Origin: Pyrinomonadaceae bacterium
GTDB taxonomy: Bacteria; Acidobacteriota; Blastocatellia; Pyrinomonadales; Pyrinomonadaceae
Length of the DNA: 64,000 nucleotides
Direction of reading: 5' to 3'
Assembly: GCA_036279935.1 (NCBI GenBank)
Contig: DASURS010000253.1
Location: 95 to 64,094, forward strand
Shown here piece by piece: positions 1,576-58,135 of the stretch. The position numbers and the translations under genes are program-made. The first letter of the stretch is position 1; each line of letters begins with the position of its first letter. The notes below the pieces were generated by a model. The model made no database searches and was not told the origin of the DNA. It saw only the letters and a list, made by a program, of their open reading frames with translations.

Positions 1576-1608
1576 AAATTCGAATTTCGAATTTCGAAAT
1601 TCGAAATT
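1576..1608. repeat. AT-rich heptamer-word palindrome (AATTTCG x4); 26 nt are perfectly self-complementary
   Basis: AAATTCGAATTTCGAATTTCGAAATTCGAAATT. The sub-string AATTTCGAATTTC|GAAATTCGAAATT equals its own reverse complement. It sits between the stop of the 1607..2743 gene and the purM ATG and overlaps that stop codon. Confidence 0.9.
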
Positions 1609-2743
1609 ATTTCTGTTTCGGCGGTGGACCAAAGTCGCCATAGGCGATGAATCCCGAGCGCGTCGAATCGTCTTTTTGCGCGGTGCGTCCTGTCCAGAGA
1701 TCCGCGCCCGGTTCTTTTGCCGTCTTAACTGCCACGTCGTTCTGTTTACCGCGCGTGCTGAGCGTGATCTCGCCGTGCAGGTCGGTGCGATAAAGCTTCA
1801 TCGACGGATTCGCGGAACGCAGGCGATCGAGCACAGCTTGCGACGGATGTCCATAACGATTCCACGCGCCGCACGAAACAATCGCAAACTCGGGTTTCAC
1901 ACGATTGAGAAAGTCGGTTGACGTCGCGTACTTCGAACCGTGATGCGCGACCTTCAGCACCTGCGCTTCGAGGTTCACATCTTTCGTCAACAGCTTGTGT
2001 TCAGTCTGGTCTTCAGCGTCGCCGGTGAGCAGCATCGAGAACGATCCGTAATCGAGACGCACGACGATCGAGTTGGCGTTCGGTTCGTTTCCGCCGGCCT
2101 TCATCTGATCTTTGGTGAAGAACGGTTCGTACGGCGCGAGGATCGTCAGGAACGCGCCGCCGCCGAGATCGATTTTCGTTCCAGGCTGTGATTGCGCGTA
2201 GTTCGCGCCGCTGTTTTTCACGCCTGCTTTGTAATCGTCGTAGAACTTGATGATCGACGCCACCTGTTTCCGGGACGGCTGTTTCGGAACTGCCTGGCGG
2301 CCTTTTGGAGTCGGCGTCGGCTTCGGCAGAAGCTCCGGAGGGATGCTCGGCTCTCGTCCGTTGTCGATCACATTCAAAACTTTGACTGTCTTGAAGACTT
2401 CGGCGGCGCCGCCGATATGGTCCGGATGCGGATGCGTGGCGATGAAGTAGTCGAGCTGCTGAATGTTGTTGCGCTTCAACGCTTCGACGACGGCCTTGCC
2501 TTTACTCGTATCGCCGGCGTCGATCAGCACCGTCTTGCCTGCCGGCGACGAGATCAGGATCGAATCGCCATTGACTGGCCCAACGTCGAGAACGCGAACG
2601 ACAAGCTCGCTTCCCGACGGCGGCGGCGGTTGTTTCTTCCACCACGGAAGAACGTACTTCCACCCGAGAACGCCTGCGGCGATGGCAACGGCGAGGAGTA
2701 CTGCAATCACGCAACCACAGCCTCGCCTGACTCGTCGTCCCAC
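1607..2743 (-). CDS. membrane-anchored MBL-fold metallo-hydrolase (ComEC C-terminal domain-like)
   Basis: N-terminal TM segment (CVIAVLLAVAIAAGVLGW). HPHPDHIGG metallo-beta-lactamase motif. VLKVAHHGSKYATSTDFL...AIVSCG...NRYGHP is typical of the ComEC/Rec2 lactamase-like domain. Confidence 0.75.
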   Translation of the reverse strand: MGRRVRRGCGCVIAVLLAVAIAAGVLGWKYVLPWWKKQPPPPSGSELVVRVLDVGPVNGDSILISSPAGKTVLIDAGDTSKGKAVVEALKRNNIQQLDYFIATHPHPDHIGGAAEVFKTVKVLNVIDNGREPSIPPELLPKPTPTPKGRQAVPKQPSRKQVASIIKFYDDYKAGVKNSGANYAQSQPGTKIDLGGGAFLTILAPYEPFFTKDQMKAGGNEPNANSIVVRLDYGSFSMLLTGDAEDQTEHKLLTKDVNLEAQVLKVAHHGSKYATSTDFLNRVKPEFAIVSCGAWNRYGHPSQAVLDRLRSANPSMKLYRTDLHGEITLSTRGKQNDVAVKTAKEPGADLWTGRTAQKDDSTRSGFIAYGDFGPPPKQK

Positions 2744-2761
2744 TCAGAAACCTCTGTTGAT

Positions 2762-3322
2762 TTATCTTCGGAGCATGGGCATGACTTTCAACCCCGGCCG
2801 GGCATCGACCTGGTTTGCGACGCGCAAAACGGTCGGAACAACCGAGTAGTCGCCCTTTGCGTACGCCGCCAGCGCCTCTTTCGCGTTCAAGACGTCCCAG
2901 ATCCACTCCTGCGAGATGGTCTGTTCCAGCATCAACACCAGCCGGTCGCCGCCTTTCGGCTTGAACGCGATCGGAGTCTTGAACGTGAAAGTCTTCTTCA
3001 CGTACGGCGGCAGTGAGAAGCCTTCGGTCCTGCTCGCAACCGGCAGCGGCGTGTTCGTCGAATCGATAACCGCCAGCGAGTATCTCACGCCCATAACTTT
3101 CGACGCCGTGCTGTTCGAGAGCGACATTCTCACGACGTAGCCCTTCTCAGCTTCAACCAGCAGCGCCTCGTGAACGCTGACGGGCAAATCGAGCACGGGA
3201 AAGATCTCGACGGGCAGGTTCCTCCCTTGGACCGCCGGGTGCGCCGGCGCAGCCAGTGCGCTGCAAACGCCTATCGATCCGACAATGGAGATCAGCATGC
3301 ACTTGCGCAGCGTGTCGAGCAT
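2762..3322 (-). CDS. hypothetical secreted protein
   Basis: 186 aa ORF with a signal-peptide-like N-terminus (MLISIVGSIGVCSALAAPA). Fits tightly between flanking minus-strand genes. No motif recognised. Confidence 0.55.
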   Translation of the reverse strand: MLDTLRKCMLISIVGSIGVCSALAAPAHPAVQGRNLPVEIFPVLDLPVSVHEALLVEAEKGYVVRMSLSNSTASKVMGVRYSLAVIDSTNTPLPVASRTEGFSLPPYVKKTFTFKTPIAFKPKGGDRLVLMLEQTISQEWIWDVLNAKEALAAYAKGDYSVVPTVLRVANQVDARPGLKVMPMLRR

Positions 3323-3331
3323 CGCTTTCGT

Positions 3332-5715: not shown

Positions 5716-6657
5716 ATGTTAGCTCTCCGCATCGAGAAGAAACTTTCAGTCAAAGAAATAAAAAAGCCCGACAACCCGGACGAAGCGCTTGTGCGCGTGT
5801 TGCTGTCAGGCATCTGCAACACGGATCTCGAGATTGCTCGCGGATATGCCGGATTCAAGGGAACGATCGGGCACGAGTTTGTCGGCATTGTTGAAAAGGG
5901 AAATCTGAGCGGGCAGCGCGTCGTCGGCGAGATCAACGCCGGTTGCGGCAAGTGCGACCTCTGCCGCGCGGGCGATTCACGACATTGTCCGAATCGCACT
6001 GTGCTGGGAATCGTCGGCAGAGACGGTGCGCACGCCGAGTTTCTTCAACTGCCGGTCGTGAACCTGGTCCCGGTTCCGGAGAACATTCCCGACGAGCACG
6101 CCGCGTTTGCTGAACCGCTCGCGGCTGCCTGCGGCATTCTGGAACGAGTCCCGGTGAGCAAAGACGATCGCGTAGCGGTGATCGGCGACGGCAAACTCGG
6201 TCTGCTCTGCGCGCAAGTCGTCGCACTGAAAGGCGCGACGACGCTTCTCGTCGGCAAACACGAGCCGAAACTCCGGATTGCCGCACGACGCGGCATCGAA
6301 ACGTCGACGCCAAAGGAAGCTGCGAAACGGAAACGGGGATTCGACGTCGTCGTCGAAGCGTCAGGAGCGGCGAGCGGGTTCGACCTCGCGCTCGATCTGC
6401 TTCGTCCGAAGGGCAAATTGGTCCTGAAGTCGACGTTCCATGGCGAGACGAAGGTAAACGCCGCGCGAATCGTCGTCGACGAGATCTCGATCGTCGGATC
6501 GCGCTGCGGACGCTTCGCGCCGGCCATCGATCTCCTCAAGCGAAACGCCATCGACGTCGACAGCCTGATCAGCGAAGAATACGCGCTTTCCGAAGGCGTT
6601 CACGCCATGAAACGAGCGCGTACAAAAGGCGTCCTGAAAGTCTTTCTTCGCCCCTAG
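5716..6657 (+). CDS. zinc-binding alcohol dehydrogenase family (MDR) oxidoreductase
   Basis: GICNTDLEIARGYAGFKGTIGHEFVG catalytic Zn motif, CGKCDLCRAGDSRHC structural Zn motif, and a GDGKLG Rossmann motif. Confidence 0.85.
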   Translation: MLALRIEKKLSVKEIKKPDNPDEALVRVLLSGICNTDLEIARGYAGFKGTIGHEFVGIVEKGNLSGQRVVGEINAGCGKCDLCRAGDSRHCPNRTVLGIVGRDGAHAEFLQLPVVNLVPVPENIPDEHAAFAEPLAAACGILERVPVSKDDRVAVIGDGKLGLLCAQVVALKGATTLLVGKHEPKLRIAARRGIETSTPKEAAKRKRGFDVVVEASGAASGFDLALDLLRPKGKLVLKSTFHGETKVNAARIVVDEISIVGSRCGRFAPAIDLLKRNAIDVDSLISEEYALSEGVHAMKRARTKGVLKVFLRP

Positions 6658-6895
6658 CCATTTTCCATTTGTCATTTTCCATTGCCTATTTTTCATTTAA
6701 GGCCAAGGGACCGCCCACCATCTCGTCAATGGCGGATGAAAAAAGGCGTTCACGCCATGAAACGAGCGCGCACGAAAGGCGTCCCATTTTCCATTTGTCA
6801 TTTTCCATTGCCTGTTTTTCATTTGAGGCAAAGTGACCGCCCACCATCTCGTCAATGGCGAATGAAAAATGGGCAATGGAAAATGACAAATAAAC
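6592..6895. repeat. tandem duplication (~124 bp unit) carrying a copy of the dehydrogenase 3' coding end plus a CCATTTT/CCATTTG-word hairpin element
   Basis: AGGCGTTCACGCCATGAAACGAGCGCG(T/C)AC(A/G)AAAGGCGTCC occurs at 6594-6636 and 6743-6785. The block CCATTTTCCATTTGTCATTTTCCATTGCCT(A/G)TTTTTCATTT...GACCGCCCACCATCTCGTCAATGGCG(G/A)ATGAAAAA occurs at 6658-6742 and 6784-6868. Only the second copy is followed by the complementary arm GGGCAATGGAAAATGACAAAT. Confidence 0.9.
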
Positions 6896-6913
6896 CGATT
6901 TAGCCCGTCTTTT

Positions 6914-6942
6914 TTGCTCACTGGACTCGCTTTAGCTATACT
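6914..6942 (+). promoter_or_regulatory. sigma70-type promoter candidate for htrA (TTGCTC-17-TATACT)
   Basis: TTGCTC at 6914-6919, 17 nt spacer, TATACT at 6937-6942. It lies 30 nt upstream of the ATG at 6972, which has an AAAGGTGG SD-like sequence in front. Confidence 0.5.
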
Positions 6943-6971
6943 CTACGCCTTTATCGAAAGGTGGTGGATGT

Positions 6972-8555: not shown

Positions 8556-8563
8556 AAAGACAT

Positions 8564-8703
8564 TTCCGATTGTCGATTGCCAATTGCCAATTTCGCGCTT
8601 GGGGGCAATTCGCGAGTTTTGGAGTTGGTGGCAATTTGAGACTAATAGTGGACGTAACCTAAATCGGCGCAATCGGCAATCGGCAATCAGCAATCGGCAA
8701 TCC
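8564..8703. repeat. intergenic hairpin with GGCAATC-word arms
   Basis: Left arm TTCCGATTGTCGATTGCCAATTGCCAATTT and right arm AAATCGGCGCAATCGGCAATCGGCAATCAGCAATCGGCAATCC are imperfect reverse complements. The element fills the htrA / aldehyde dehydrogenase gap. Confidence 0.9.
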
Positions 8704-8704: not shown

Positions 8705-10264
8705 ATGGCTCAGGCAATCTCCAAAACAAGCGGTAAGCTCTCCGCACGCAACGCTGCGCGCGCGGCTGTCAAGAATTACCAGAACTACATCAACGGCGAA
8801 TGGGTCGCGAGCCAGTCGGGTGAGATGTTCGAAAACATCAACCCCGCCGACACGCGCGACATAGTCGGACGCTTTCCGCTTTCTACGAGCGAAGACGTCA
8901 ACGCCGCCGTGAACGCCGCGCAGGGTGCGTTCGATCGCTGGCGCAACACGCCGGCGCCGAAGCGCGCGGAATTGCTGTTTCGCCTCGGCGAGATCCTGAT
9001 TCGCAACAAGGAACAGTTCACCGCCGACATGACCCGCGAAATGGGCAAGGTGTTGAAAGAGGCCGGCGGCGACGTTCAGGAAGCCATCGATTGCACTTAC
9101 TACACCGCCGGCGAAGGCCGTCGTCTGCACGGCTTTACGACGCCGGCCGAGATGCGGAACAAGTTCGCGATGTGCATCCGCCAGCCGGTCGGACTGTGCG
9201 GACTGATAACGCCGTGGAACTTTCCGATGGCGATTCCGTCGTGGAAACTGATCCCGGCGCTGGTCTGCGGCAACACCGTCGTGCTCAAGCCCGCCGAAGA
9301 CACGCCGCTTTCGACTTACAACCTCGTTAAGGCTTGCGAAGAGGCAGGAATCCCGCCGGGCGTCGTGAACCTCGTCACAGGCTATGGCGAATCAGTGGGC
9401 GCTGCGATGACGAACCATCCCGCATTGCGCCTGATCTCGTTCACGGGCTCGACTGAAACCGGACGCATCGTCGCGTCCGCGTGCGCCGAGCGAAACGCGA
9501 TCTGTTCGCTCGAAATGGGCGGCAAGAACGCCATCATCGTGATGGACGACGCGGACATCGATCTCGCTATTGAAGGCGCCATTTGGGGCGCCTTCGGTAC
9601 GTCAGGCCAACGTTGCACTGCTTCGTCGCGCCTCGTCGTTCACAAAAAAGTTTACAAGCAGTTTGTCGCCAGGCTCGTCGAACAAACGAAAGCGCTGCGC
9701 GTCGGCAACGGCGCCGATCCAAAGACGGACGTTGGGCCGCTAATCAACAACGACGCCGTTGAAAAAGTCATGGGCTACATCCGCATCGGCCGCAACGACG
9801 ACGGCGCGACGCTGTCCTGCGGCGGTAAGCGGCTCACGCGCGGTGATTACGCAAATGGTTATTTCATCGAGCCGACTGTCTTCAGCGATGCGACGCCCGA
9901 TATGCGGATCTCGCAGGAAGAGATCTTCGGTCCGGTTACGACCGTGATCCCGGCCAACTCGCTCGAGGACGCGATTCAGATCGCCAACGGAGTTCGTTAC
10001 GGGCTCTCCGCCGCGATCTACACGCAAAACGTGAATCGCGCGTTCAAAGCGATGAACGAGATGTACACGGGCATCTTCTACGTGAATGCTTCCACCATCG
10101 GCGCCGAAGTTCATCTTCCGTTTGGCGGCACGAAAGCCACCGGCAACGGCCATCGCGAAGCTGGAACCCAGGTCCTGGATATTTTTTCGGAATGGAAGTC
10201 CATCTACGTTGATTTCAGCGGCAAGCTGCAGCGCGCGCAAATTGATGTCGAGTCGCCCCAATAA
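8705..10264 (+). CDS. aldehyde dehydrogenase family protein (NAD(P)+ dependent)
   Basis: [32 protein letters not shown] (catalytic Glu) and GQRCTASSR (catalytic Cys) motifs. Substrate not assignable from sequence alone. Confidence 0.88.
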
Positions 10265-10417
10265 GGGGCTTTGTGCTTGGTACTTTGTGCTTTGTACTTT
10301 GTTCGCCAGATGACCGTTGAAATGATCACCCATCGCTCGAATGCGGCAGAACAAAGAACAAAGAACAAAGCACTAGTACAAAGTACTAAGCACAAAACAC
10401 AAAACCATAAAGCCCAC
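10264..10417. repeat. intergenic hairpin with ACAAAG-word arms
   Basis: GGGGCTTTGTGCTTGGTACTTTGTGCTTTGTACTTTGTTC ... GAACAAAGAACAAAGAACAAAGCACTAGTACAAAGTACTAAGCACAAAACACAAAACCATAAAGCCC. The arms are complementary in several registers. Confidence 0.9.
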
Positions 10418-10434: not shown

Positions 10435-11583
10435 TTGATCGTAGGTCTGCCTAAAGAAATCAAAGACAATGAATACAGAGTTGGACTGACTCCCGCCGGC
10501 GTGCGCGCGCTTAAAGACGCGGGCCACGAAATCCTCGTCGAAACCGACGCGGGCGCAGGGTCCGGTTTTGAGAACGCGCTTTACGAACGTGCCGGCGCCA
10601 CCATCATCGACTCGGCTGCCGATGTTTGGACCAACGCCGAGATGATCGTCAAAGTCAAAGAGCCGATCGCGTCAGAATACCCGCACATGCGCGATGGTCA
10701 GTTGTTGTTCACCTACCTTCACCTCGCTCCAGATCGCGAGTTGACGCAACAGTTGATCGATCGCCGCGTGACCGGCATCGCGTACGAGACAATTACCGAT
10801 CGACGCGGCACGTTGCCGTTGTTGACGCCGATGTCTGAAGTCGCAGGCCGCATGGCGATCCAGGTTGGCGCTCACTATCTCGAGAAGATGAGCGGCGGAC
10901 GCGGCATTTTGCTGGGTGGCGTTCCGGGCGTTCCCGCGGCCCGCGTCGTGATCATCGGCGGCGGCGTCGTCGGCACGAACGCGGCGAAGATCGCCGTCGG
11001 CATGGGCGCGCACGTCACGATCATCGACAACAATCTCGATCGTCTGCGCGAGCTCGACGACATTTTCCTTTCTAAGATCTCGACGCTCGCGTCCAGCGCG
11101 TACATGATCCACGACGCGATCTCGCAAGCCGATCTGATCATCGGCGCCGTGCTGGTCAAAGGCGCAGCCGCGCCGAAGTTGATCACGCGCGCCATGCTGA
11201 AAGACGTTCCGAATGGCGCGGTGATCGTCGACGTCGCCGTCGATCAAGGCGGCTGCATCGAGACGACGCACCCGACGACGCACTCGAACCCGACTTACTA
11301 CGTCGAAGGCGTGTTGCACTACTGCGTCGCCAACATGCCGGGCGCCGTGCCGCGCACGTCAACCTTCGCGTTGACCAACGCGACGCTGCCGTACGCTCTC
11401 AAACTCGCGAACAAGGGTTTCCTTCACGCCATCGCTGACGATCCGGGATTGAAGGAAGGTGTGAATACGTTTGCCGGTGAGTGTACGTATGAGGCGGTCG
11501 CTTTGGACCAGGGAATTCCGTACGTTGCGCTCGACGACTTGATCGGTGTTTCAAACACAGATCGAGCGAATGCAGTCCAATAA
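10435..11583 (+). CDS. ald: alanine dehydrogenase
   Basis: TTG start. [26 protein letters not shown]..., [13 protein letters not shown] Rossmann motif, [10 protein letters not shown]. Classic Ald N-terminus and length. Confidence 0.92.
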
Positions 11584-11985
11584 ACTTTCCGGCGAGATCG
11601 GCTTCGAGAGAAACGCGTTGGCCTGTTCGGCCTCCGCGTTTTTCGGGTCAAGGCCGCTCAACAGGATGATCGGCAGGTGGCTGAGAGTTTGGCTGCCCCT
11701 CACGAACCGGCACAGCTCGTAGCCACTCAGGTTCGGCATCACCGCATCCGTGACCACGACGTCCACACTCGCATTCAGCAGAAACTTCATAGCCTCCAGC
11801 CCGTCCGCTGCGGATACGACTTCGTAACCTGCTCGTTGCAGCGTCACTTCCAGGTACCGGCGGAGAGCAGCATCATCCTCGGCGAGGAGGACGCACCGAG
11901 TCTCGCCCGGCGTTTCGGCCGGGTGCAGTATTTCTCCTATTCCCTCGTTCAGCGTTTCCGGTGTGATCATCGGGCTGTGCAGCAA
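11551..11985 (-). CDS. stand-alone response regulator receiver (CheY-like) protein
   Basis: [22 protein letters not shown] (phospho-acceptor Asp) and LSKP motifs. No output domain. The 3' end overlaps the ald 3' end by 33 nt (convergent). Confidence 0.8.
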
Positions 11986-12100
11986 GACTTTCGAGGCCGT
12001 GAGGGCTCTGAAGTTCGACGACGGCGCGCACGTGCGCCAGGGATTCGACTCGCCGCAAGCAGATTAGACCGCCCGCGCCGTGATTGTCAATGTTTAACCT

Positions 12101-12131
12101 TTAACCACAAGAAGGTGCCTTTTGTGGTTAA
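12101..12131. repeat. short CCACAAAAGG-family palindrome abutting the asnB stop codon
   Basis: TTAACCACAAGAAGGTGCCTTTTGTGGTTAA. On the minus strand the asnB stop reads TAA-CCACAAAAGGCAC. Confidence 0.85.
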
Positions 12132-14065
12132 TCGAGGAAGGTGCGGTGCCAGAGTTCGAGGCCTAAAAGCTGGAAAACCTGGAGGTTATAGTCCTCACGG
12201 CCGGAAAAGTTGGCGTCGAGAACGCGTCTGACCTCCTTCGGGCGGAACAGGCCGCGGCGTTTCACCACTTCCTCCGACAGCACGTCGTCAATCATCGGCC
12301 GCAAAGCCCCGCGCAGCCACGACCGAATGGGCGCGCCGAACCCGGCTTTCCGCCGCCAGATCACGTCCTTCGGTAACACGCCTTCCAGGGCCCGCTTGAG
12401 CACGTACTTGCGTTTCAACCCGTGAAGCTTGAGCCGGGGCGGCATGCGCGCGGCCATCTCGATCATCTCGCGGTTCAGAAACGGCACCCGCACCTCGAGG
12501 TTCGCGGCCATCGACGTCTTGTCCGTCGTCATGAGGTTCAGGCAGGGCAGGAACGTTTTCAAGTCGACGTAGAGCAGTCGATTCAGCGGCGCGGCATCGG
12601 CGACGCGCGCGAAGTAAGCGCGATGCGTGGCGTACGGGTCATAGTCGCGGGTGATGGCACGCCACTCGTCGGAATAAAGACGATGTTTCATTTCGTCAGT
12701 GAAGTAGGTTCCGTAGCCGAGATAGCGGTCTTCGAAGTCGAGCGCTGCGCTGCGCGCAAACTTCTTCGCGTTGCGCAGCGGCGCTGTCAGTTTGCCAGGC
12801 AGTCCGCCGGGTAAGGCACGGGCAACGCTCTTCATCAGCGGGCGACGCAGCATTTGCGGAACGGGGTCGAACGCGGACGCGATCTTCATCGCCATTTGCC
12901 GCGGGTAACCGGCGAACACTTCGTCGCCGCCCATGCCGGACAGCATGACGGTCAACGTCTCGCGTGCGGCGCGCGAGATGAGGTAACTCGGAATCGCCAT
13001 GTCGATCGGCGGCTCTTCCATGTGATAGACCAGCTTCGGCAGCAGGTCCGCGACGGACGGCTGCAACATGATCTCGTGATAGTCAGTCTGCAACTGCTCG
13101 TTGACGCGGCGGGCCCAGCGGACGTCGTCGGGAATGATGTCGTAGCGCAGGTCGTGGGTCTCGATGCCCGCGGTGTACGTGCTGATGCGCCGGCCGTCGA
13201 CGTGACGTTGCATGAGCGCGGTGATGCCCGACGAGTCAACGCCGCCGGAGAGAAACGAGCCGAGCGGAACGTCGGCCACCATCTCCATCTTTACCACTCT
13301 GTCGAGCGTCTCGAGCGTCCGGTCGCGCCACCACGCTTCGTTTCGTCCTTCTTCGATATGCGTGAACGAGACGTCCCACCATTGGCGCAGCTCGATCTGG
13401 TCGTTGCGGAAATGAAGCAGGTGGGCCGGCGGGACTGTCTTGATGCCGGCGAAGAGTGTATTGGGATCGGGCGACCACAGAAACGTCAGAAACTGGTGCA
13501 GCGCTTCCGAGTCGAGCGCCGGTCTGATTAATTGCGTCGCGAGAATGGCTTTGATTTCGGAGCCGAAGACAAACGCCGGTGGCGCGTCGTCGTTACCGGG
13601 AATGTAGGCGTAGTAGAGCGGCTTGATGCCGGCGTGATCGCGGGCGAGCGTCAGCATGCGCTCCTCGTTGTCCCAGACGGCGAAGGCGAACATGCCGTTT
13701 AGATGGTCCATCGCGTCCCAGCTCCACTCGACGATGGCTGCGAGCAGGACTTCAGCGTCGCTTTCAGTGCGAAACTCGTGGCCCAGCGCGCGCAGTTGTT
13801 GGCGCAGTTCGCGATAGTTGTAAATCTCGCCGTTGAATGTGAGGACGTAACGGCCGTTGTGCGAAAGCATCGGCTCGTGTCCGGCGGGGCTGGTGTCGAT
13901 GATTGCTAGACGGCGATGGCCCAGGCAGACGGTTCGGCCGTCGTCATCGATTGGCGGGGAGGTCCAAATGCCTTGATCGTCACGTCCACGGTGCTCGATC
14001 GCTTCAAGCATCCGCAAAATCCGTGGTTCCGGCTGGACGCTAATAATTCCGGCAATGCCGCACAT
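12128..14065 (-). CDS. asnB: asparagine synthase (glutamine-hydrolysing) family amidotransferase, polysaccharide-cluster paralogue 1
   Basis: Start set at MCGIAGII (catalytic Cys2; ATG at 14065). The ORF-track extension to 14164 overlaps the upstream gene. SGGVDSS PP-loop motif present. Confidence 0.9.
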   Translation of the reverse strand: MCGIAGIISVQPEPRILRMLEAIEHRGRDDQGIWTSPPIDDDGRTVCLGHRRLAIIDTSPAGHEPMLSHNGRYVLTFNGEIYNYRELRQQLRALGHEFRTESDAEVLLAAIVEWSWDAMDHLNGMFAFAVWDNEERMLTLARDHAGIKPLYYAYIPGNDDAPPAFVFGSEIKAILATQLIRPALDSEALHQFLTFLWSPDPNTLFAGIKTVPPAHLLHFRNDQIELRQWWDVSFTHIEEGRNEAWWRDRTLETLDRVVKMEMVADVPLGSFLSGGVDSSGITALMQRHVDGRRISTYTAGIETHDLRYDIIPDDVRWARRVNEQLQTDYHEIMLQPSVADLLPKLVYHMEEPPIDMAIPSYLISRAARETLTVMLSGMGGDEVFAGYPRQMAMKIASAFDPVPQMLRRPLMKSVARALPGGLPGKLTAPLRNAKKFARSAALDFEDRYLGYGTYFTDEMKHRLYSDEWRAITRDYDPYATHRAYFARVADAAPLNRLLYVDLKTFLPCLNLMTTDKTSMAANLEVRVPFLNREMIEMAARMPPRLKLHGLKRKYVLKRALEGVLPKDVIWRRKAGFGAPIRSWLRGALRPMIDDVLSEEVVKRRGLFRPKEVRRVLDANFSGREDYNLQVFQLLGLELWHRTFLD

Positions 14066-14066
14066 C

Positions 14067-14097
14067 TTAAATTTCAGATCTGAGATCTGAGATCTCA
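14067..14097. repeat. GAGATCT heptamer repeat (three overlapping AGATCT palindromes) inside the last codons of the oxidoreductase
   Basis: TTAAATTTCAGATCTGAGATCTGAGATCTCA. TCAGATCTGA and TGAGATCTCA are each perfect palindromes. It encodes the ...EISDLRSEI* tail. Confidence 0.85.
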
Positions 14098-16232: not shown

Positions 16233-16262
16233 AGCCACAAAAAGGCACAAAAGTCACAAGGC
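16233..16262. repeat. single-arm CCACAAAAAGGCACAAAAG element between two co-directional genes
   Basis: Plus strand reads caTAGCCACAAAAAGGCACAAAAGTCACAAGG. The TAG head overlaps the reverse-complemented ATG of the oxidoreductase. Confidence 0.85.
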
Positions 16263-16270
16263 GGTAAGCT

Positions 16271-17449: not shown

Positions 17450-17465
17450 TCGGAAAGCTGGAGAG

Positions 17466-18257
17466 TTATGACGGCTTCACTCGCGCGACGCACAGGCCTG
17501 ACACGCCGAATGGCAAGTTGAGGTAACGCAGCAGCGTACTCTCCGCACCGAATATCGCACCGAACACACTGTTGAAAGCAGATACGTTGATAGTGTTCTC
17601 GGTCGCGGTTTTGATTCCGGTCAGCCGCATGAACTTCCTCACGAACAGAATCGGCAGGAAGAACGTGATGTTCGCGTACGTTGAGCGCTCGACCTCAAAC
17701 CCCGCCTCTTCGAGGACGCGCCGGAGTTCCGGCAATCGATATCTGCGCCGGTGATTACTGACTTCGTCCTGCAGTCCCCACAAAAACATGAACGTCGGAA
17801 CAAACAAAAGCACGCGCCCGCCGGGCCGCAACACGCGTCGCATTTCGGTCAGTCCCGCGAGGTCGTCGTCCATGTGTTCGACGACGTCAAACGCCGTCAC
17901 CAGATCGAACGTGCCATCTTCGTAAGGCAACTCTTCACCCGCGCCGAGCCTGACCTTGTCCAATCCGCGCGCGCGACAAAACGCGAGCGCATCTTCCGAA
18001 ACGTCGACACCTTCCGCCTGGCCGTACTTCGAAAGCAGCAGCAGATTCGCGCCCGTTCCGCACCCGACATCGAGAATACGCGGGCGTCTGTCGGTCACCT
18101 GGCGACAGATCTGTTCGACGAAACCGGCGATGATGCGACGGCGTCCGATGTACCACCAATGCGACTGCTCGACCTCGTAGAGAATCGGATACGTGTGCTC
18201 CATCATCTCGCGTGGGAGCGGGTTCGTAATGCTTTTTGCGTCGGACGTAAAGCTCAT
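17466..18257 (-). CDS. class I SAM-dependent methyltransferase
   Basis: Start set at MSFTSD (ATG 18257), which forms an ATGA overlap with the upstream stop. ILDVGCGTGANLLLL motif I present. The track extension to 18650 overlaps the upstream gene. Confidence 0.85.
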   Translation of the reverse strand: MSFTSDAKSITNPLPREMMEHTYPILYEVEQSHWWYIGRRRIIAGFVEQICRQVTDRRPRILDVGCGTGANLLLLSKYGQAEGVDVSEDALAFCRARGLDKVRLGAGEELPYEDGTFDLVTAFDVVEHMDDDLAGLTEMRRVLRPGGRVLLFVPTFMFLWGLQDEVSNHRRRYRLPELRRVLEEAGFEVERSTYANITFFLPILFVRKFMRLTGIKTATENTINVSAFNSVFGAIFGAESTLLRYLNLPFGVSGLCVARVKPS

Positions 18258-20612: not shown

Positions 20613-20625
20613 AGCTGAGTATCGA

Positions 20626-20752: not shown

Positions 20753-20754
20753 CT

Positions 20755-21567: not shown

Positions 21568-21607
21568 AACCACAAAGAGGCACAAAAATCACAAAAGGCA
21601 CAAATTC
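21568..21607. repeat. single-arm CCACAAAGAGGCACAAAAATCACAAAAGGCACAAA element directly upstream of a start codon
   Basis: Plus strand reads caTAACCACAAAGAGGCACAAAAATCACAAAAGGCACAAATTC. The TAA head overlaps the reverse-complemented ATG at 21567. No complementary arm lies nearby. Confidence 0.85.
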
Positions 21608-21616
21608 ATAAACGAG

Positions 21617-46747: not shown

Positions 46748-46838
46748 GGAGATGTGGCCGAGTGGCTGAAGGCGGCGGTTTGCTAAACCGTTAAGGGTCA
46801 AAAGCCCTTCACAGGTTCGAATCCTGTCATCTCCGCCA
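46748..46838 (+). tRNA. tRNA-Ser (anticodon GCU), class II with long variable arm, CCA encoded
   Basis: GGAGATG-TG-GCCGAGTGGCTGAAGGC-G-GCGGT-TTGCTAA-ACCGT-TAAGGGTCAAAAGCCCTTC-ACAGG-TTCGAAT-CCTGT-CATCTCC-G-CCA. The cloverleaf was folded by hand and aligns position by position with E. coli tRNA-Ser. Confidence 0.95.
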
Positions 46839-46850: not shown

Positions 46851-46915
46851 AAGTAGTTAGTAGCCAGTCCGTCAGTAAACCCGTTACTGAACCCTGACTA
46901 CTGACTACTTTTTTA
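46851..46915 (+). terminator. hairpin with AGTAGTY-word arms plus T-tract (terminator/attenuator between tRNA-Ser and gltX)
   Basis: AAGTAGTTAGTAGCCAGT ... CTGACTACTGACTACTT followed by TTTTTTATT. There is an inner CAGTAA/TTACTG stem. The gltX ATG is 6 nt after the T-tract. Confidence 0.65.
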
Positions 46916-48970: not shown

Positions 48971-48977
48971 TGCACTG

Positions 48978-49193
48978 AAAAAGCCGTCCACGATCTGAGA
49001 CCGTGGACGGCTTTCGGTAGACTGTTGGGATTGGCCTGATGGCTACTGTGTGCAACTTCCAGAAAGGAGGAGCACTATGCAGTGAGACGACCGAACCAGA
49101 ATCCTAACAAGTTAGCTGGTTCAGAGGTCAGGCCGCAGCCACCTCACTGTGATAAGAACTCATAAATTTTAGAATCACCTCCTTTCCAGTGTT
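48978..49193 (-). ncRNA. candidate about 215-nt small RNA (or small-ORF transcript) with its own promoter and terminator
   Basis: Bounded by TTGACG-17-TATGAT (49229-49201) and the terminator at 48982-49012. Three nested helices on this strand: GAAAGGAGG/CCTCCTTTC (49178-49186 with 49062-49070), CAGTGAG/CTCACTG (49143-49149 with 49080-49086), GAACCAG/CTGGTTC (49116-49122 with 49093-49099). Lower GC than the surroundings. Contains an 11-codon ORF (MSSYHSEVAAA, 49163-49128). Confidence 0.5.
48982..49012. terminator. bidirectional intrinsic terminator hairpin (11-bp stem); the better T-tract is on the minus strand
   Basis: AGCCGTCCACG-ATCTGAGAC-CGTGGACGGCT. The plus strand continues TTCGG. The minus strand continues TTTTTC. 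Confidence 0.8.
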
Positions 49194-52606: not shown

Positions 52607-52641
52607 AAAAGGCGTCTTGTGTCTTTTGTGCCTTTTTATGG
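52607..52641. repeat. single-arm CACAAAAGG-family element (complement orientation) in a divergent intergenic region
   Basis: AAAAGGCGTCTTGTGTCTTTTGTGCCTTTTTATGG. Its reverse complement is CCATAAAAAGGCACAAAAGACACAAGACG. Confidence 0.8.
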
Positions 52642-53630: not shown

Positions 53631-54239
53631 TTAAAACCGGACGTGCTCGGCGGCGACGCCGTCCTTGCACTCAACACAGTCCTCATCTTCCTCGTACAAG
53701 CGAACGTCGAAATCGACCAGCGACTTGATCGGCACGTCCTCGATTTCGCTCGGCGCCGTGTTGAACCTGACGATCGTCCCGCAACCGATAATCTTCGCAC
53801 CGACTTGCTTCACAAGCTCGACGGTTTCGTCGAGCGCGTTGCCGCTGCGGACGATGTCGTCGACGATGATGCAGGGATTGACTTCGCCCTGGTTCACATA
53901 CTGGCGAAACATGCGCTCGCCTTTTTCCTGTTCCGCCCAATAAATCTGTTCCGCATTGAGCGCATCGCGAACGCCAAAAGCGACCGGTATGCCGCCCGAG
54001 CTCGGACTGATGATCGAGATTTTGGGTAACTGACTGGAGATGTCCTTTTCGAGCCGGAACTTCCGGCTGAGCGCGACCGCGAGCACGCGCGCGGTATCGT
54101 AGTAGCGAAACGCCAATGGCATTTGAAAATAGTGGGGCGAGTGCTTGCCGTTCGGGTATACGAAATGGCCCTCGCGAAACGCGCCGGTGCGCTTCAGTAT
54201 CTGCATTATGGCGTCTTGGGAAGGAATCAGCTCGACCAT
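53631..54239 (-). CDS. phosphoribosyltransferase family protein (PyrE-like type I PRTase)
   Basis: PRPP-binding loop CIIVDDIVRSGNAL. N-terminus GAFREGHFVYPNGKHSPHYF resembles orotate PRTase-like proteins. Confidence 0.7.
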   Translation of the reverse strand: MVELIPSQDAIMQILKRTGAFREGHFVYPNGKHSPHYFQMPLAFRYYDTARVLAVALSRKFRLEKDISSQLPKISIISPSSGGIPVAFGVRDALNAEQIYWAEQEKGERMFRQYVNQGEVNPCIIVDDIVRSGNALDETVELVKQVGAKIIGCGTIVRFNTAPSEIEDVPIKSLVDFDVRLYEEDEDCVECKDGVAAEHVRF

Positions 54240-54371
54240 TGGGTGCTCCAGAATTGTGTTCGATTAGCGCCGCAGAGCATACATCAATCGCGCCCTGCCG
54301 CGAAATCCGTGCCGCACGAGAATTTATTTGACATTCTTCATTTGTCATTTCTAAGATTCGAGTTCAAAACT

Positions 54372-55385
54372 ATGGCAGCTACCGACGCAACAACGGGCAA
54401 AGCGGACTCGATCGCAGCCGCAGCGGCACCCGTCCCCAAGCGAATCACGAACGCCCAAACGGTTTGCAACGAGAAGAACGAAAAGGGAAAGCTCTGTAAC
54501 GGGCACCTGAAACAGTTGCGCACCGCGGGCGAGCCGGCGGAGATTCATCTGCGCGGCGACGACGTGCTTTTCAAATGCCAGACGTGCGGGACGCTCTACA
54601 TGGGACCGCCGCTGGGTCACGTGCGCGATCCGAACAAGCAGGTTCGTTTCGTCGAGGCGGAGTTGACCGCGTTGCTGCAAGCTGCCGGCGGCACGCTGCC
54701 GGTTATCAAGAAGAACGAACGCGGCGTGTACGTGATGATCGAGACTGAGGCCGCCGGCGGCCACGGTCACGCGCCCGCGAAAGCCGCTGCGCCGGCTGCG
54801 GCGACGCCGGCTGCACCCAAACCCGCTGCACCGAAACCCGCCGCGCCGGCAGCCGCTGAGCCTGCAGCCGCCGCGCCCGCAGCGCCAAAACCGGCAGCGC
54901 CTGCCGCACCCGCTGCGCCTGCCGAACACAAGACGGCCGGCGCGAATCCGAATCGACAGTTGTTCAAGCGTTCGACGTATGCGGGCGTTGCGGACACTGG
55001 TCCAGTCGCGGGTGAGACGTTCGAACAGAAGGTCGCGCGGCTCAAAGCACTTTCAGCGGCCGCGAAGCAACGTGCGGAAGAAGGTGGTGGACCAGAGCCG
55101 GCTGCTGCAGCACCTGCACATGCCCCAGCCGCGGTCGAAACAGCACCTGCGGCTGAGCCACCGTCTGCGCCTGCCAGTCCTGCACCCGCTGCTGCTACAC
55201 CTGCACCCGCTGCAAGTGCCGGCGAACACAAACCGACCGGCAACGCGGATCGCACGTTAATGAAACGTTCAACTTATTGTGGAGTTGTTGATACCGGTCC
55301 GGTTCCCGGCGAGACTTTCGAACAGAAAGTCGCTCGACTGGCGGCCCTTTCCGCAGCCGCCAAGCAACGCTCCGAAGGCGGTTAA
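54372..55385 (+). CDS. hypothetical protein: N-terminal Cys4/His zinc-ribbon-like region, Ala/Pro low-complexity linkers, and two copies of an about 55 aa module
   Basis: Start set at MAATDATTGK (ATG 54372). CNEKNEKGKLCNGH...CQTCG. Module 1 is EHKTAGANPNRQLFKRSTYAGVADTGPVAGETFEQKVARLKALSAAAKQRAEEGG. Module 2 is EHKPTGNADRTLMKRSTYCGVVDTGPVPGETFEQKVARLAALSAAAKQRSEGG. Confidence 0.6.
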   Translation: MAATDATTGKADSIAAAAAPVPKRITNAQTVCNEKNEKGKLCNGHLKQLRTAGEPAEIHLRGDDVLFKCQTCGTLYMGPPLGHVRDPNKQVRFVEAELTALLQAAGGTLPVIKKNERGVYVMIETEAAGGHGHAPAKAAAPAAATPAAPKPAAPKPAAPAAAEPAAAAPAAPKPAAPAAPAAPAEHKTAGANPNRQLFKRSTYAGVADTGPVAGETFEQKVARLKALSAAAKQRAEEGGGPEPAAAAPAHAPAAVETAPAAEPPSAPASPAPAAATPAPAASAGEHKPTGNADRTLMKRSTYCGVVDTGPVPGETFEQKVARLAALSAAAKQRSEGG

Positions 55386-55527
55386 CCACAAAAGGCACAA
55401 AAGAAAGAACCAGTAAAAAACAAAGAACAAGTTTCCAAAGCACAAAGAACCCGATTACCTGAGCACATCTCTCTTGTGCCTTTTGTGCCTTTTGTGCCTT
55501 TTGTGTCTTTTGTGCCGTTTGTGGTTA
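55383..55527. repeat. CCACAAAAGG-family hairpin between convergent genes; both stop codons lie in the arms and the right arm has 5 word copies
   Basis: TAACCACAAAAGGCACAAAAG ... CTTGTGCCTTTTGTGCCTTTTGTGCCTTTTGTGTCTTTTGTGCCGTTTGTGGTTA. Plus-strand gene stops at TAA 55383-55385. Minus-strand gene stops at TAA (55527-55525). Confidence 0.92.
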
Positions 55528-56535
55528 GTAGCTCTCGGTCACCGTTAACCCTTCGCGCGCGATTTTCCAGTCCAAAACTTCAGCGCCTTCTTCACTCGCG
55601 AGCGCCGCTTCGACTTCAGCTCGTCTGCCCGGCGCGCAGAGAAACGCGATACATCCGCCGCCACCCGCACCACAGACTTTCGCCGCTTCCGCTCCGTTCT
55701 CCAGCGCCTTCGCGACCAGCATATCCATTTGCGGAGTCGTGATCGTCGGCGCCAACCGTTTCCGGCCGGGATACGCGTTCTTCATCGTTGCCGCGACTCT
55801 GTCCCAGTCGTCGGCAAGTAGCGCCTCGCGCATGTTGCGCGCTGAGTCGCGTATGCCGTCGAACAGTTCGAACAGCTCGGCGTCGCCGTCGATGTGACGT
55901 TTATAGATCTCCCAGTTATTGATTCCGGAGAGTCGCGGTTCGCCGGTGTAGCAGATGGCGATGCGTCGTTCGAGCTCGTCGATGTTGATGTCGAGCGCCT
56001 CTCGCTCGATTCCGTCGGGACGAAAGTGGACGCACGATACCGAGCCGTACATCGGCGGATAGTAGTCCTGAAACCCGGCCGGCACTTTGATCACTGTCGA
56101 CTCGATATTCGCAGCGATCGGAATGAACTTTCGTTCCTCGTAACGGTTTCCGACAAGTCGATTCAACGCGCCGATGCAGGCGATGGCAAGCGCCGACGAA
56201 CCGCCGAGCCCCGCGCCCGCCGGCACGTTGCTGTCGGCGACGAGATGGAAACCCGTGGTTGGTTTGAAAAAGTGGACGAGCTTCGAGATCAGCTCCAGGC
56301 GCTCTTCAAGCAGCAGGTCTTCGAGCGCGGAAAGGTGCGTTTCAAATGACACTTTGCGATCGCGTGATTCGAGCACGATGCGACCATCGTCGCGCGTCTC
56401 GATGCGGCAGCGAGCATAAAGTGAGAGTGCGAAATTAACTGTCGTAGCGCCCGGATGAAAAAGGTAAAGAGGCCAAATGTCGATCGTGCCACCCGCGAGG
56501 TCGACGCGCGGCGGTGCTGAAGACTCAATTATCAT
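55525..56535 (-). CDS. GHMP-family kinase (sugar/sugar-phosphate kinase type)
   Basis: PPRVDLAGGTIDIWP N-terminal motif and PAGAGLGGSSALAIACIGAL ATP-binding motif II. Substrate not assignable. Confidence 0.8.
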   Translation of the reverse strand: MIIESSAPPRVDLAGGTIDIWPLYLFHPGATTVNFALSLYARCRIETRDDGRIVLESRDRKVSFETHLSALEDLLLEERLELISKLVHFFKPTTGFHLVADSNVPAGAGLGGSSALAIACIGALNRLVGNRYEERKFIPIAANIESTVIKVPAGFQDYYPPMYGSVSCVHFRPDGIEREALDINIDELERRIAICYTGEPRLSGINNWEIYKRHIDGDAELFELFDGIRDSARNMREALLADDWDRVAATMKNAYPGRKRLAPTITTPQMDMLVAKALENGAEAAKVCGAGGGGCIAFLCAPGRRAEVEAALASEEGAEVLDWKIAREGLTVTESY

Positions 56536-56752
56536 TGACGATTGCCAATTGCCGATTGCCGATTGCGGCCGGCCCCATAATGTGGATTCTCAATAACGTG
56601 AGGCAAGTTAACAATTCAAACAAGCCTTTGCAATCGCCAATCAGCAATCGCCAACCAGCAACCGGGCTTCGTCAATCAGCAAATCGCCAATCAGCAACGG
56701 GGCTTCGTCGATCAGCAAATCGGCAATCGGCAATCGGCAATCGCCAATCCCG
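56534..56752. repeat. large GGCAATC-word hairpin with an internal 36-bp tandem duplication
   Basis: Left arm ATTGACGATTGCCAATTGCCGATTGCCGATTGCGG. Right side GCAATCGCCAATCAGCAATCGCC, then CAGCAACCGGGCTTCGTCAATCAGCAAATCGCCAAT / CAGCAACGGGGCTTCGTCGATCAGCAAATCGGCAAT, then CGGCAATCGGCAATCGCCAATCC. Confidence 0.9.
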
Positions 56753-57463
56753 TCATTCGCCGTCGCTTTTGCGCTCTTTGTGCTCGCCGCGTTTGAAAGG
56801 CATGTGCTCGTGCAACTCGTCGCGCAGGTCCTGGAGTTTTTCAGTCGCGGCGTGTTCGAACTCCTGTAAACGCTCCGGATCGGCTTCCTCGAATTTTCGC
56901 GAGATCCAGAAGCGCTCGGTAAGATAAAACGCAGCGATACCGACGACGACGATCACCAGCAACACTTTCCCGAGCCGCTGGAAGTCGCCGATCAGTCCCA
57001 TGACGGCGCCGCTGAAAAAGTAGCCCGCGCCGGCAAGTACGAACACCCACAGGAAACAGCTCGCAAACGAGAGCAGCAGGAAACGCAGGTACGGCATCCG
57101 CCCGACGCCGTAAAACACGCACGACGCCCAACGCAAGCCGTAAATGTACTTCGAAAGAAAAATGGAAAGCGGACCGAACTTGTTCGTCAGCCGCTCGAGT
57201 CGAGGTTTCGCCGCGCGATAAAACCGAACTTCCCTGACGCCTTCACAAAACGCGCGTCCGGCGAAGTAGGCGAGGTTGTCGCTGGCGCAACCGCCCAGAG
57301 TGCCCCACACCAAAACGCGCGCAAAGCTGTACTCACCAAAAAAGCCGCTGTGCGCCAGCACTCCGGCGATCAAAAGCGTGATGTCGCCCTCGATCATCAC
57401 GAGGATGAGCACGGCATAAAGTCCATACTGGCCTATCAGTTCGTAGAGAAAGTCGAGGTGCAT
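56753..57463 (-). CDS. DedA family (VTT/SNARE-associated domain) membrane protein
   Basis: GLYAVLILVMIEGDITLLIAGVLA ... GGCASDNLAYFAGR typical DedA N-terminal region. Confidence 0.82.
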   Translation of the reverse strand: MHLDFLYELIGQYGLYAVLILVMIEGDITLLIAGVLAHSGFFGEYSFARVLVWGTLGGCASDNLAYFAGRAFCEGVREVRFYRAAKPRLERLTNKFGPLSIFLSKYIYGLRWASCVFYGVGRMPYLRFLLLSFASCFLWVFVLAGAGYFFSGAVMGLIGDFQRLGKVLLVIVVVGIAAFYLTERFWISRKFEEADPERLQEFEHAATEKLQDLRDELHEHMPFKRGEHKERKSDGE

Positions 57464-57530
57464 CCGTTCATCCGTGCTTCAGATCGGCCGGCGGCTGACA
57501 AGAATAAACTGGAGGCCTGCTTATTGACTA

Positions 57531-57995
57531 CTATTCTGTTGCGTCCTCTTGGGGAGGTTTCACGACCAGCACGGGACACGACGCATGCCGCACGACGGAT
57601 TCGGCAGTGGAACCAAAAAGGATGCGTCCCAAACCGGTCCTGCCATGCGATGCAATGACGATCAGGTCAACTTCACGCTCTTTCGCGACGCGCACGATCT
57701 CCGAAGCCGCTTCGCCGTGAACAACCAGCTCCTCGATCTCAATGCCGGTGCATTCCTCGCATTCGGCGAGTTTCGGCAGCTCGCGCTCGGCTGAGTCTTC
57801 GAGTTGTTCGGCGATGTCGGCAATCGGCAATGGCTCCGTCATTCCTGAGTAGCCGACCGTCGGCACAATCGGCTCGATGACGTTGATGCAGATGATTGAC
57901 GCGCGAAACGTGCGGGCGAGGGACGCCGCATACGAGAGGGCATAGTTACCACATTCACTAAAATCCGTGGGTAGAAGGATGGTTCGAATGTCCAT
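57531..57995 (-). CDS. universal stress protein (UspA family)
   Basis: Start set at MDIRTILLPTDFSE (ATG 57995). C-terminal VIASHGRTGLGRILFGSTAESVVRHASCPVLVV ATP-binding motif. Confidence 0.88.
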   Translation of the reverse strand: MDIRTILLPTDFSECGNYALSYAASLARTFRASIICINVIEPIVPTVGYSGMTEPLPIADIAEQLEDSAERELPKLAECEECTGIEIEELVVHGEAASEIVRVAKEREVDLIVIASHGRTGLGRILFGSTAESVVRHASCPVLVVKPPQEDATE

Positions 57996-58007
57996 TGGGC
58001 AACCGCT

Positions 58008-58135
58008 GCTTTTGTGCTCAGTTTGGGCTTTTGTACTTAGTGCTTTGTTCTTTGTTCGCAAACTTGCCGTTCTGTTTGGCAATGGCCCGGTCGACATGCG
58101 AACAAAGTACAAAGGACAAAGCACTAAGCTCAACG
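58008..58135. repeat. ACAAAG-word hairpin located in a divergent promoter region
   Basis: GCTTTTGTGCTCAGTTTGGGCTTTTGTACTTAGTGCTTTGTTCTTTGTTCGC ... GCGAACAAAGTACAAAGGACAAAGCACTAAGC. The right arm carries one extra 7-nt word. Confidence 0.88.

Follow-up and report, generated by a model that had tools for sequence, protein, structure and literature searches.

Heptanucleotide-repeat stem-loops of changing sequence in the intergenic spacers of a Pyrinomonadaceae bacterium

The DNA analysed in this study, referred to below as the window, is a stretch of 64,000 nucleotides (nt) from a Pyrinomonadaceae bacterium, a soil acidobacterium (Acidobacteriota; contig DASURS010000253.1 of GenBank assembly GCA_036279935.1, positions 95 to 64,094 of the forward strand). 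Its G+C content is 59%, and the approximately 50 genes annotated by Pfam have ordinary housekeeping and polysaccharide-synthesis functions. At 17 intergenic loci, which occupy about 17 of the roughly 28 spacers of at least 60 nt, a short word is repeated in tandem with a period of 7 nt, or in some cases of 8 or 9 nt; 14 of these loci have two arms and three have a single one. The elements are locally evolving intergenic stem-loops, and their arms are small heptanucleotide microsatellites with reverse-complementary words. A preliminary description of the same DNA, made from its letters alone, had reported at least 13 such loci and a hairpin in most of the larger gaps; the first statement is borne out and the second is roughly right. 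Our array calls were made with Tandem Repeats Finder (TRF), which returned an array at every locus that had been listed, and the pairing of the arms was measured with an inverted-repeat finder, which gave paired arms of 20-59 nt that are 71-97% complementary. Some details of the earlier account need correction. The loops range from 3 to about 160 nt rather than from 30 to 80 nt; the arms at 12100 and 46851 have just 11-16 nt, and the self-complementary arrays at 1576 and 14067 are loop-less; and the word at 20626-20752, given as GCGCAAAGG, is really the 8-mer CGCAAAGG, to which TRF assigns a period of 8. Judged by RNA fold z-scores, 13 elements fold with z between -3.0 and -8.7, and 14066-14100 is not significant (z = -1.2). 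Rfam 15 at gathering score returned nothing in the window except a tRNA-Ser gene (46748-46838, also called by ARAGORN), and the hairpins match no curated RNA family.

The 7-nt periodicity belongs to the non-coding DNA of the window, where the autocorrelation values for lags of 7, 14 and 21 nt are 0.327, 0.299 and 0.287, respectively, over a baseline of about 0.255; the coding DNA has the lag-3 (codon) signal alone. A strict self-complement scan (arms of at least 18 nt, at least 75% complementary, loop up to 300 nt) found 10 long inverted repeats in the window and none in shuffled sequence, the null model being three dinucleotide-preserving shuffles. When the scan was extended to the window plus 80 related loci, which make up our family set of 1.33 Mb (the labels L001 and so on denote related loci), it returned 141 long inverted repeats against 1-7 in the shuffles, 113 of them in non-coding DNA. 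The hairpins are thus well above shuffled sequence, a comparison on which the preliminary description had let their interest depend. The period itself is equally distinct in the family set, with 386 arrays of period 7 as against 75 of period 6 and 79 of period 8, and so is the inverted arrangement: 237 of the 465 arrays of period 7 or 8 have a reverse-complement partner within 350 nt, the reverse-only control giving 17, and separated arrays of one word are inverted in 98 cases and direct in one. What varies is the word. The earlier impression of a constant architecture with a differing word holds for the whole family set, which contains 159 different canonical words, most of them, like the 122 words of a metagenome sample, without GGG. 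That sample consists of contigs L081-L200, picked by a scan for ATTGCCR x3; the scan hit more than 120 metagenome contigs, whose sources include soil and freshwater, whose G+C contents span 47-68% and which together hold 344 heptamer arrays. When these contigs were searched by tblastn with the proteins encoded in the window and in the 80 related loci, a single match exceeded 50% identity. Altogether, about 2 Mb of related and metagenomic DNA yielded 160 inverted heptamer-array pairs with more than 150 words.

The anatomy of the elements is far more uniform than their sequence. The number of units per arm has a sharp mode at 4-5, the median difference between the arms of a pair is one unit, the loop has a median length of 48 nt in the family set, and the stems span 20-60 bp. 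Hairpins begin a median of 6 nt behind a stop codon (interquartile range 3-12), and the distance that separates their end from the following start codon is often about 10-14 nt. A T-run, defined as at least 8 T in the 15 nt behind the hairpin, follows in just 5%. Outside the syntenic anchor region, 29 of 331 co-directional spacers are occupied, compared with 2 of 90 convergent and 4 of 92 divergent ones (p = 0.04 for co-directional versus convergent); the majority of the hairpins thus separate co-directional genes.

The two arms are not interchangeable. Among the 169 scorable pairs of the 181 in the family set and the independent metagenome sample together, the G+T-rich arm is the 5′ one in 129 and the 3′ one in 40 (p = 4e-12), and the same bias is obtained when each distinct word is counted once (59 vs 16). 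In the metagenome sample ATTGCCG comes first in 45 pairs and second in one. In the 9-mer class the polarity is reversed (7:1), with a tendency toward convergent spacers, and the A/C-first order is relatively commoner where open reading frames (ORFs) end on both sides (28:17 vs 72:16, p = 0.02). Since an inverted repeat has one and the same arm order on both strands, this polarity is intrinsic to the element; for that reason a strand effect as the reading of an excess of G over C in the 5′ arm in sense orientation was rejected, and the strand-dependent test was done on unpaired arrays. Directly after a stop codon these are G+T-rich on the sense strand (60 vs 32, p = 0.005). A strand-symmetric process acting on double-stranded DNA would not be expected to produce such polarity, which points to a directional single-strand process such as transcription with RNA folding, or fold-back DNA synthesis.

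Comparison of orthologous spacers indicates how the words change. The aldDH gene (aldehyde dehydrogenase, 8705-10264) has orthologues 70-96% identical in 80 contigs, mostly labelled as metagenome-assembled genomes (MAGs) of Pyrinomonadaceae, Blastocatellia or Acidobacteriota, and the block g5200-adh-htrA-aldDH-alaDH is syntenic in 28 genomes, in which its four spacers hold a period-7 array in 46-82%. Words from the same spacer of different genomes lie within one mismatch of each other in 15% of pairs, compared with 3.2% for different spacers (p = 3e-48). The htrA/aldDH spacer is a clear case. Most relatives have a hairpin there, made of words other than those of the window; in relatives down to about 70% protein identity its stem of 20-35 bp starts at the stop codon and stops about 10 nt short of the ATG, with fold energies of -45 to -75 kcal/mol, while the words are joined by single substitutions (GTTTCGA, GTTTCAA, GGTTCAA; GTGAATC, GTGAACC; AGTCCAA, AGTCTCA; GTGATGA). 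Within a genome the two arms always match each other, whereas 5′ arms set against the 3′ arms of other genomes gave only 40% pairs; the structure has therefore been retained and the sequence replaced. Because this hairpin leaves no room for a promoter before aldDH, transcription must read through it. The hairpins of the window, L002 and L049 have the same ATTGCC word at this site and non-homologous loops, and in L001, L003 and L014 the spacer measures 6-30 nt with no trace of a target duplication.

Presence and absence of the hairpins vary between genomes that are 84-96% identical, a polymorphism at orthologous spacers that the preliminary description had proposed to look for. Array density among the relatives ranges from 0 to 7 per 10 kb, with almost none in L001, L005 and L014. 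At the aldDH/alaDH site, L001, L005 and L049 have no hairpin, L008, L009, L016 and L021 have one with different words, and L015 (about 11560-11650) carries one direct array of about 12 NNTCTGA units in its place. The word of the 6657 hairpin, by comparison, is also found at the orthologous site of L003, L006, L009, L016, L020 and L021. In the g5200/adh spacer, the hairpins of L002 (2123-2249) and L003 (7122-7214) have composite arms with outer ACTTTGT and inner CAGTGGT units. Arrays change by whole units between relatives: at the site orthologous to 12100, each arm of the L001 hairpin (13250-13390) consists of four CACAAAAGG units, whereas the window keeps a remnant of one unit. The L001 structure is nested, with a further hairpin that is not periodic (AAAAGGGGAGTA...TACTCTCCTTTT) inside its CACAAAAGG arms, and the hairpin of L003 at this site is built on the 8-mer CTTTGCGY. 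L005 has a canonical GC hairpin with T7, and L004 a hairpin with T6, where relatives have a heptamer hairpin. Upstream of htrA (6895-6971 and orthologous sites) a segment TTTTTTGCTC...TTTAGCTATACTCT, which looks like a promoter, is conserved in all close relatives, and each genome's hairpin sits just upstream of it. The arms can also expand independently of one another, as the copy numbers at 56534 illustrate, and the mirror order of unit variants between arms exceeds that in unit-shuffled arms slightly (19.5 vs 17.8), an effect too small to separate selection from templated copying.

Table 1. Repeat elements of the window, with word, genomic setting, arrays and arms, and predicted folding (energy in kcal/mol; stop-codon position and strand of flanking genes in brackets, and for 46851-46913 the strand of the element).
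Position	Word and type	Setting	Arrays and arms	Fold	z
1576-1608	AATTTCG units changing to AAATTCG at the centre, loop-less	spacer of MBL-fold gene (stop 1607, -) and purM-like gene (Pfam), filled by the array	TRF period 7, 4.7 copies	-13.7	-3.0
6657-6895	CCATTTT-type hairpin	abuts adh stop codon (6657)	TRF arrays 6658-6698, 6784-6809; left arms 6667-6697 and 6793-6823, right arm 6861-6891, 97% and 94% complementary	-88.3	-6.6
8562-8703	ATTGYCR / GCAATCG hairpin	fills htrA/aldDH spacer, 7 nt past stop codon to 2 nt before ATG 8705	8576-8592 (ATTGCCA) / 8669-8702 (GCAATCG)	-54.3	-3.8
10267-10406	GCTTTGT / ACAAAGN hairpin	aldDH/alaDH spacer	10268-10302 / 10348-10405	-52.1	-6.6
12100-12130	short hairpin CCACAAGAAGG..CCTTTTGTGG, one 9-mer unit per arm	behind asnB stop (12128, -)		-12.2	-3.5
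14067-14097	GAGATCT x3, self-complementary array	after oxidoreductase stop (14067, -)	TRF 14076-14095	weak	-1.2
16240-16259	single arm, 9-mer AAAAGGCAC	spacer below glycosyltransferase stop (16271)	TRF; partner arm not found		
20626-20752	CGCAAAGG (period 8) hairpin	methyltransferase stop (20755, -) / GT2 gene spacer	arms 20626-20666 / 20712-20752, 88-97% complementary; TRF arrays 20634-20656 / 20722-20744	-76.4	-8.7
21571-21604	single arm, 9-mer CACAAAAGG, 3.7 copies		TRF; partner arm not found		
24468-24580	CATTTTC / CGTTTGT hairpin	ends at asnB-2 stop (24579, -)	24483-24501 / 24537-24578	-40	-5.5
29363-29464	GGTCTTY / RAAGACC hairpin	UDP-glucose dehydrogenase stop (29467, -) / epimerase gene spacer	TRF 29403-29462	-52	-6.0
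32387-32477	CACAAAAAG (period 9-10) hairpin	fills convergent spacer	TRF 32391-32418	-31	-4.8
46851-46913 (+)	AGTAGTY / CTGACTA hairpin	behind tRNA-Ser, then TTTTTT	TRF 46894-46909	-27.5	-6.1
52617-52636	single arm, 9-mer TTGTGCCTT	divergent spacer of esterase gene and ybaB (Pfam)	TRF		
55383-55527	CACAAAAGG / TTGTGCCTT (period 9) hairpin	convergent spacer	right array 55474-55523, 5.6 copies, longer and cleaner than left array	-43.3	-4.1
56534-56749	ATTGCCG x4.7 / GCAATCG x16.9 hairpin	VTT-domain gene stop (56753, -) / GHMP kinase gene spacer	arrays 56534-56566 / 56630-56749; 56534-56564 / 56718-56748 pair at 94%	-103	-7.2
58013-58137	TTTGTDC / GNACAAA hairpin	divergent usp / ROK-family gene spacer	58030-58057 / 58102-58121	-47.8	-3.7

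The individual elements are collected in Table 1. Several words occur more than once in the window: GGCAATC, CCATTTT and the ACAAAG type twice each, and the 9-mer CACAAAAGG, to which all three single arms (16240, 21571, 52617) belong, six times. Within 6596-6860 some 126 nt are duplicated in tandem, taking in the last 60 or so nt of adh, the left hairpin arm and a portion of the loop, so that the 6657 hairpin has a second left arm but a single right one; the copies of 6600-6640 and 6657-6725 lie at 6750-6785 and 6783-6851, respectively. The right array of the 56534 element (56630-56749) contains a 36-nt higher-order repeat in 2.9 copies. The element at 58013-58137 lies upstream of the true usp start, since in the long ORF the Usp domain does not start until residue 61. 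The element at 46851-46913 looks like an ordinary intrinsic terminator, and 32387-32477, with its A/C-rich arm 5′ and its T-rich arm 3′, looks terminator-like on both strands. The convergent spacer at 48975-49012 has a non-periodic G+C-rich hairpin (AAAAGCCGTCCACG...CGTGGACGGCTTT), so that conventional bidirectional terminators are in use in this genome as well. The short spacers of a long minus-strand polysaccharide/glycosylation cluster (12128-30801) house seven of the repeat elements; the cluster has two asnB-like genes, several glycosyltransferase and methyltransferase genes, and genes for a heparinase II/III-like protein, a UDP-GlcNAc 2-epimerase and a UDP-glucose dehydrogenase. Elsewhere, a family-A DNA polymerase gene (32475-34601, minus strand) encodes 3′-5′ exonuclease and polymerase domains in a 708-aa ORF that has no 5′-nuclease domain, and upstream of it is a gap of 204 nt with no called gene. 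The plus-strand ORF 54123-55385 (420 aa, no Pfam match) contains tandem repeats of 15 and 30 nt (CCGCCGCGCCCGCAG...) at 54810-54919, which probably encode a low-complexity Pro/Ala-rich segment.

The explanation that we favour, with moderate confidence, is that the elements are slippage-built RNA stem-loops, intercistronic or in the 3′ untranslated region, that let transcription through. Units would be gained and lost through replication slippage, and the pairing between the arms would be maintained by selection, possibly aided by template-switch ('quasipalindrome') correction; because selection or correction keeps the arms complementary, the word would drift while the hairpin persists. The stem would act in the transcript, its G/U-rich arm following the upstream stop codon and its A/C-rich arm closing just before the next gene, and with no U-tract behind the stem RNA polymerase would read through. 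Such a stem could serve as operon punctuation by blocking 3′-5′ decay, by offering a site for RNase III-type processing or by insulating one cistron from the next. The REP stem-loop between malE and malF (REP, repetitive extragenic palindromic) and the intercistronic hairpin of the Rhodobacter puf operon are analogues of this kind of transcript punctuation. The minority of opposite polarity, which has a U-rich 3′ arm and consists mostly of the 9-mer CACAAAAGG in convergent spacers, may behave more like bidirectional terminators.

Several observations weigh against this explanation. We infer the action at the RNA level from position and polarity. Mismatches compatible with G:U pairing are more numerous on the sense than on the antisense strand (64 vs 44), which is a weak trend (p = 0.067), and the sense fold is more stable than the antisense fold by 1.4 kcal/mol, a difference that is not significant. 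The 7-nt unit and the preference for 4-5 units are not accounted for. L001, at 84% nucleotide identity, is without all three hairpins that the window has in the syntenic block; with such absences in close relatives, the hairpins are either dispensable or only modulatory. The modest mirror signal and the unequal arm lengths fit neutral microsatellite dynamics. Finally, the p-values given here overstate independence, many of the counts coming from orthologous sites and from one word-ascertained metagenome sample.

A neutral mutational origin is accordingly a serious rival, which we consider possible although somewhat doubtful. The hairpins would then be a by-product of lineage-specific 7-nt slippage combined with fold-back or template-switch copying in tolerant spacers, and would have no function. 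The patchy distribution, the differences in presence among closely related genomes, the very unequal arm lengths that suggest independent expansion, the replacement of the hairpin by a long direct array in L015, the modest mirror signal and the strand tests that fall short of significance would all fit such a process. It does not readily explain why the same spacers are occupied family-wide while the word turns over in both arms, nor why the hairpins are set so tightly against stop codons. The strong polarity of the arms and the sense-strand preference of the unpaired arrays are likewise not predicted by a strand-symmetric DNA process, and occupancy is lower in convergent spacers, where additional DNA should be tolerated best.

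Two other functional explanations appear improbable to us. In the first, the hairpins are simply the transcription terminators of this lineage, with long stems and no U-tracts. Their position directly behind stop codons would suit terminators, as would the canonical terminator of L005 and the T6-bearing hairpin of L004 at the same place, the T6 run of the element that follows the tRNA gene, and the 9-mer class with its U-rich 3′ arms in convergent spacers. As a general account, this was rejected on T-runs, on spacing to the next start codon and on context, with 46851-46913 as the exception: a T-run is missing in 95%, many hairpins come so close to the following start codon (about 10 nt or less) that a promoter would not fit, they are rarer rather than commoner in convergent spacers, the dominant polarity places the A/C-rich arm last, and the window has ordinary terminator hairpins as well, such as the one at 48975-49012. 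The preliminary description had already stated that the elements are not simply terminators, and the scarcity of T-runs and the short distance to the next start codon agree with it. In the second, which we rate about as low, a protein that binds single strands and covers about 7 nt, for example a cold-shock protein (Csp), would bind the nascent G/U-rich 5′ arm and control formation of the stem, and so bring about anti-termination or translational control. A 7-nt unit that is independent of the word, a G+T-rich arm that is transcribed first and the frequency of T-rich words would all fit; CspB binds heptamer repeats with one protein per unit, and the idea has been raised for the TAACTGA repeats (PMC4679880). 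T-richness, however, is lacking in many words, and neither the 8- and 9-nt units nor the need for a complementary arm would be explained.

It is very improbable that the hairpins are mobile elements of the REP/REPIN kind or MITEs (miniature transposable elements with inverted repeats), with one transposase-spread family per word, a reading largely rejected on loops, heads, target duplication and transposases: although several words recur at distant loci of the window, words differ by at most one base more often among the sites of one genome than between genomes (10.6% vs 3.2% of pairs, p = 0.002), presence varies between relatives and ATTGCCR arrays are widespread in metagenomes, copies with the same word (8564/56534, 6657/24468, 10264/58008 and the 9-mer group) share their periodic arms only and not loops or flanks, orthologous same-word hairpins have non-homologous loops, more than 150 words would require equally many families, the REP head motifs GTAG and CGTC are present in 16 and 8 of 160 pairs where chance gives about 10%, filled orthologous sites set against empty ones show no target duplication as far as the strong divergence of the spacers allows this to be judged, no transposase or REP-associated tyrosine transposase (RAYT, Y1) domain occurs among the approximately 50 window proteins, and the word changes stepwise in place. 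The earlier view of recurring words as families thus survives as a modest excess of word sharing and not as mobile families, and the likeness to REP elements, bacterial interspersed mosaic elements (BIMEs) or MITEs holds for placement only, which resembles that of REP/BIME; the loops are unshared and the GTAG/CGTC heads are lacking.

An excess of intergenic heptanucleotide repeats in bacteria has reportedly been noted since the work on cyanobacterial short tandemly repeated repetitive (STRR) sequences of around 1990 and the 2007 survey of simple sequence repeats (SSRs) by Mrazek et al. in PNAS. The lineage described here offers a natural experiment on this old puzzle, the word being free while the 7-nt period, the 4-5 units, the inverted pairing, the position behind the stop codon and the polarity are fixed. 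A free word with a fixed design separates structure from sequence, which argues against word-specific explanations such as G-quadruplex formation or a specific DNA-binding protein. Word turnover with conserved structure, together with the arm polarity, makes the puzzle testable, and concrete predictions follow for read-through, for processing and for the effect of swapping the arms. We also consider, as a speculation that we think unlikely to hold, that heptamer-periodic stem-loops are a general, word-independent form of operon punctuation across phyla, in Acidobacteria, Xanthomonas and perhaps cyanobacteria. Common to all would be a unit of 7 nt, arms of about 4-5 units, a G/U-rich arm first after the stop codon, an A/C-rich arm last and no U-tract, and this design would be made and read by a directional single-strand process. 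That process could, for example, be the binding during transcription of a Csp or another OB-fold protein that covers 7 nt, or the avoidance of Rho loading on an exposed C-rich arm. If this were true, the heptamer excess in bacteria could be explained by one shared function, to which the G-quadruplexes proposed for Xanthomonas would be incidental. In practical terms, gene callers will be misled by the hairpins, into which long ORFs extend, and so will terminator predictors, and the hairpins are likely breakpoints in short-read assemblies of Acidobacteria MAGs.

Among known systems, the puf hairpin and the malE-malF REP share with the elements described here a long stable stem between co-transcribed genes with no U-tract behind it. 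They are single conserved sequences that are not built from microsatellites, however, and a comparable function of the present elements is putative. REP/BIME elements and REPINs are extragenic palindromes of similar size that likewise lie behind stop codons and also inside operons. REP/BIME elements stabilise upstream mRNA. They differ in that our elements have no sequence conserved between copies, no GTAG/CGTC head and no RAYT among the window proteins, and in that the arms here are periodic. MITEs are also small non-coding inverted-repeat elements with presence/absence polymorphism, but here there is no conserved internal sequence, no target-site duplication was seen, and the arms are tandem arrays that evolve in place.

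The closer relatives of the elements are the intergenic heptamer arrays known from other bacteria, which include the cyanobacterial STRR sequences, the TAACTGA repeats of Beggiatoaceae (PMC4679880) and the GATAGRA repeats of Chloroflexus (PMC6749651), and whose role is still said in the literature to be 'not very well worked out'. In cyanobacteria (Calothrix, Nostoc, Microcystis) and Beggiatoaceae the heptamers mostly form single direct arrays, often just upstream of start codons, and the roles proposed for them include translational regulation and the binding of Csp (PMC4679880; bioRxiv 10.1101/2022.06.06.494920). They are like ours in being intergenic tandem heptamers, in some species with several words per genome. 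Inverted pairs are reported to be rare there, with 'one indirect repeat' in the Guaymas 'Maribeggiatoa' (BOGUAY) and 'only a few' in Nostoc, whereas the inverted pair is the rule in our family set. The GGGAATC arrays of Xanthomonas come nearer. Rehm et al. (2015, PMC4692102) described 70-75 convergent inverted pairs per genome as potential stem-loops, the arrays having a mode of four units, lying right after stop codons between aligned ORFs and being mostly transcribed; there is one G-rich word per genome, and the arrays were read as G-quadruplex formers. All the positional features recur here, namely inverted heptamer pairs, a mode of about four units, the position after the stop codon and the co-directional ORFs, and the G-rich strand, which is the sense strand after the stop codon in Xanthomonas, has its counterpart in the G+T-rich arm that comes first here. 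The differences are that Xanthomonas has a single G-tract word while our elements have more than 150, most of them without G-runs, so that a quadruplex cannot be the common principle, that about half of the arrays are paired here, that word turnover at orthologous sites is documented here, and that the phylum is another one. The preliminary description did not recognise the pattern as a described class, which is too strong as regards heptamer arrays and their inverted pairs, given Xanthomonas. The literature that we searched, which did not extend to the 2007 SSR survey and a 2008 paper on cyanobacterial small repeats, contained no description of such elements in Acidobacteria, Blastocatellia or Pyrinomonadaceae or of many-word heptamer hairpins, and neither word turnover with retained structure nor arm polarity was found described in it. 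The best reading of the elements of this window is therefore that they are the many-word, acidobacterial form of the known and as yet unexplained heptamer-repeat elements.

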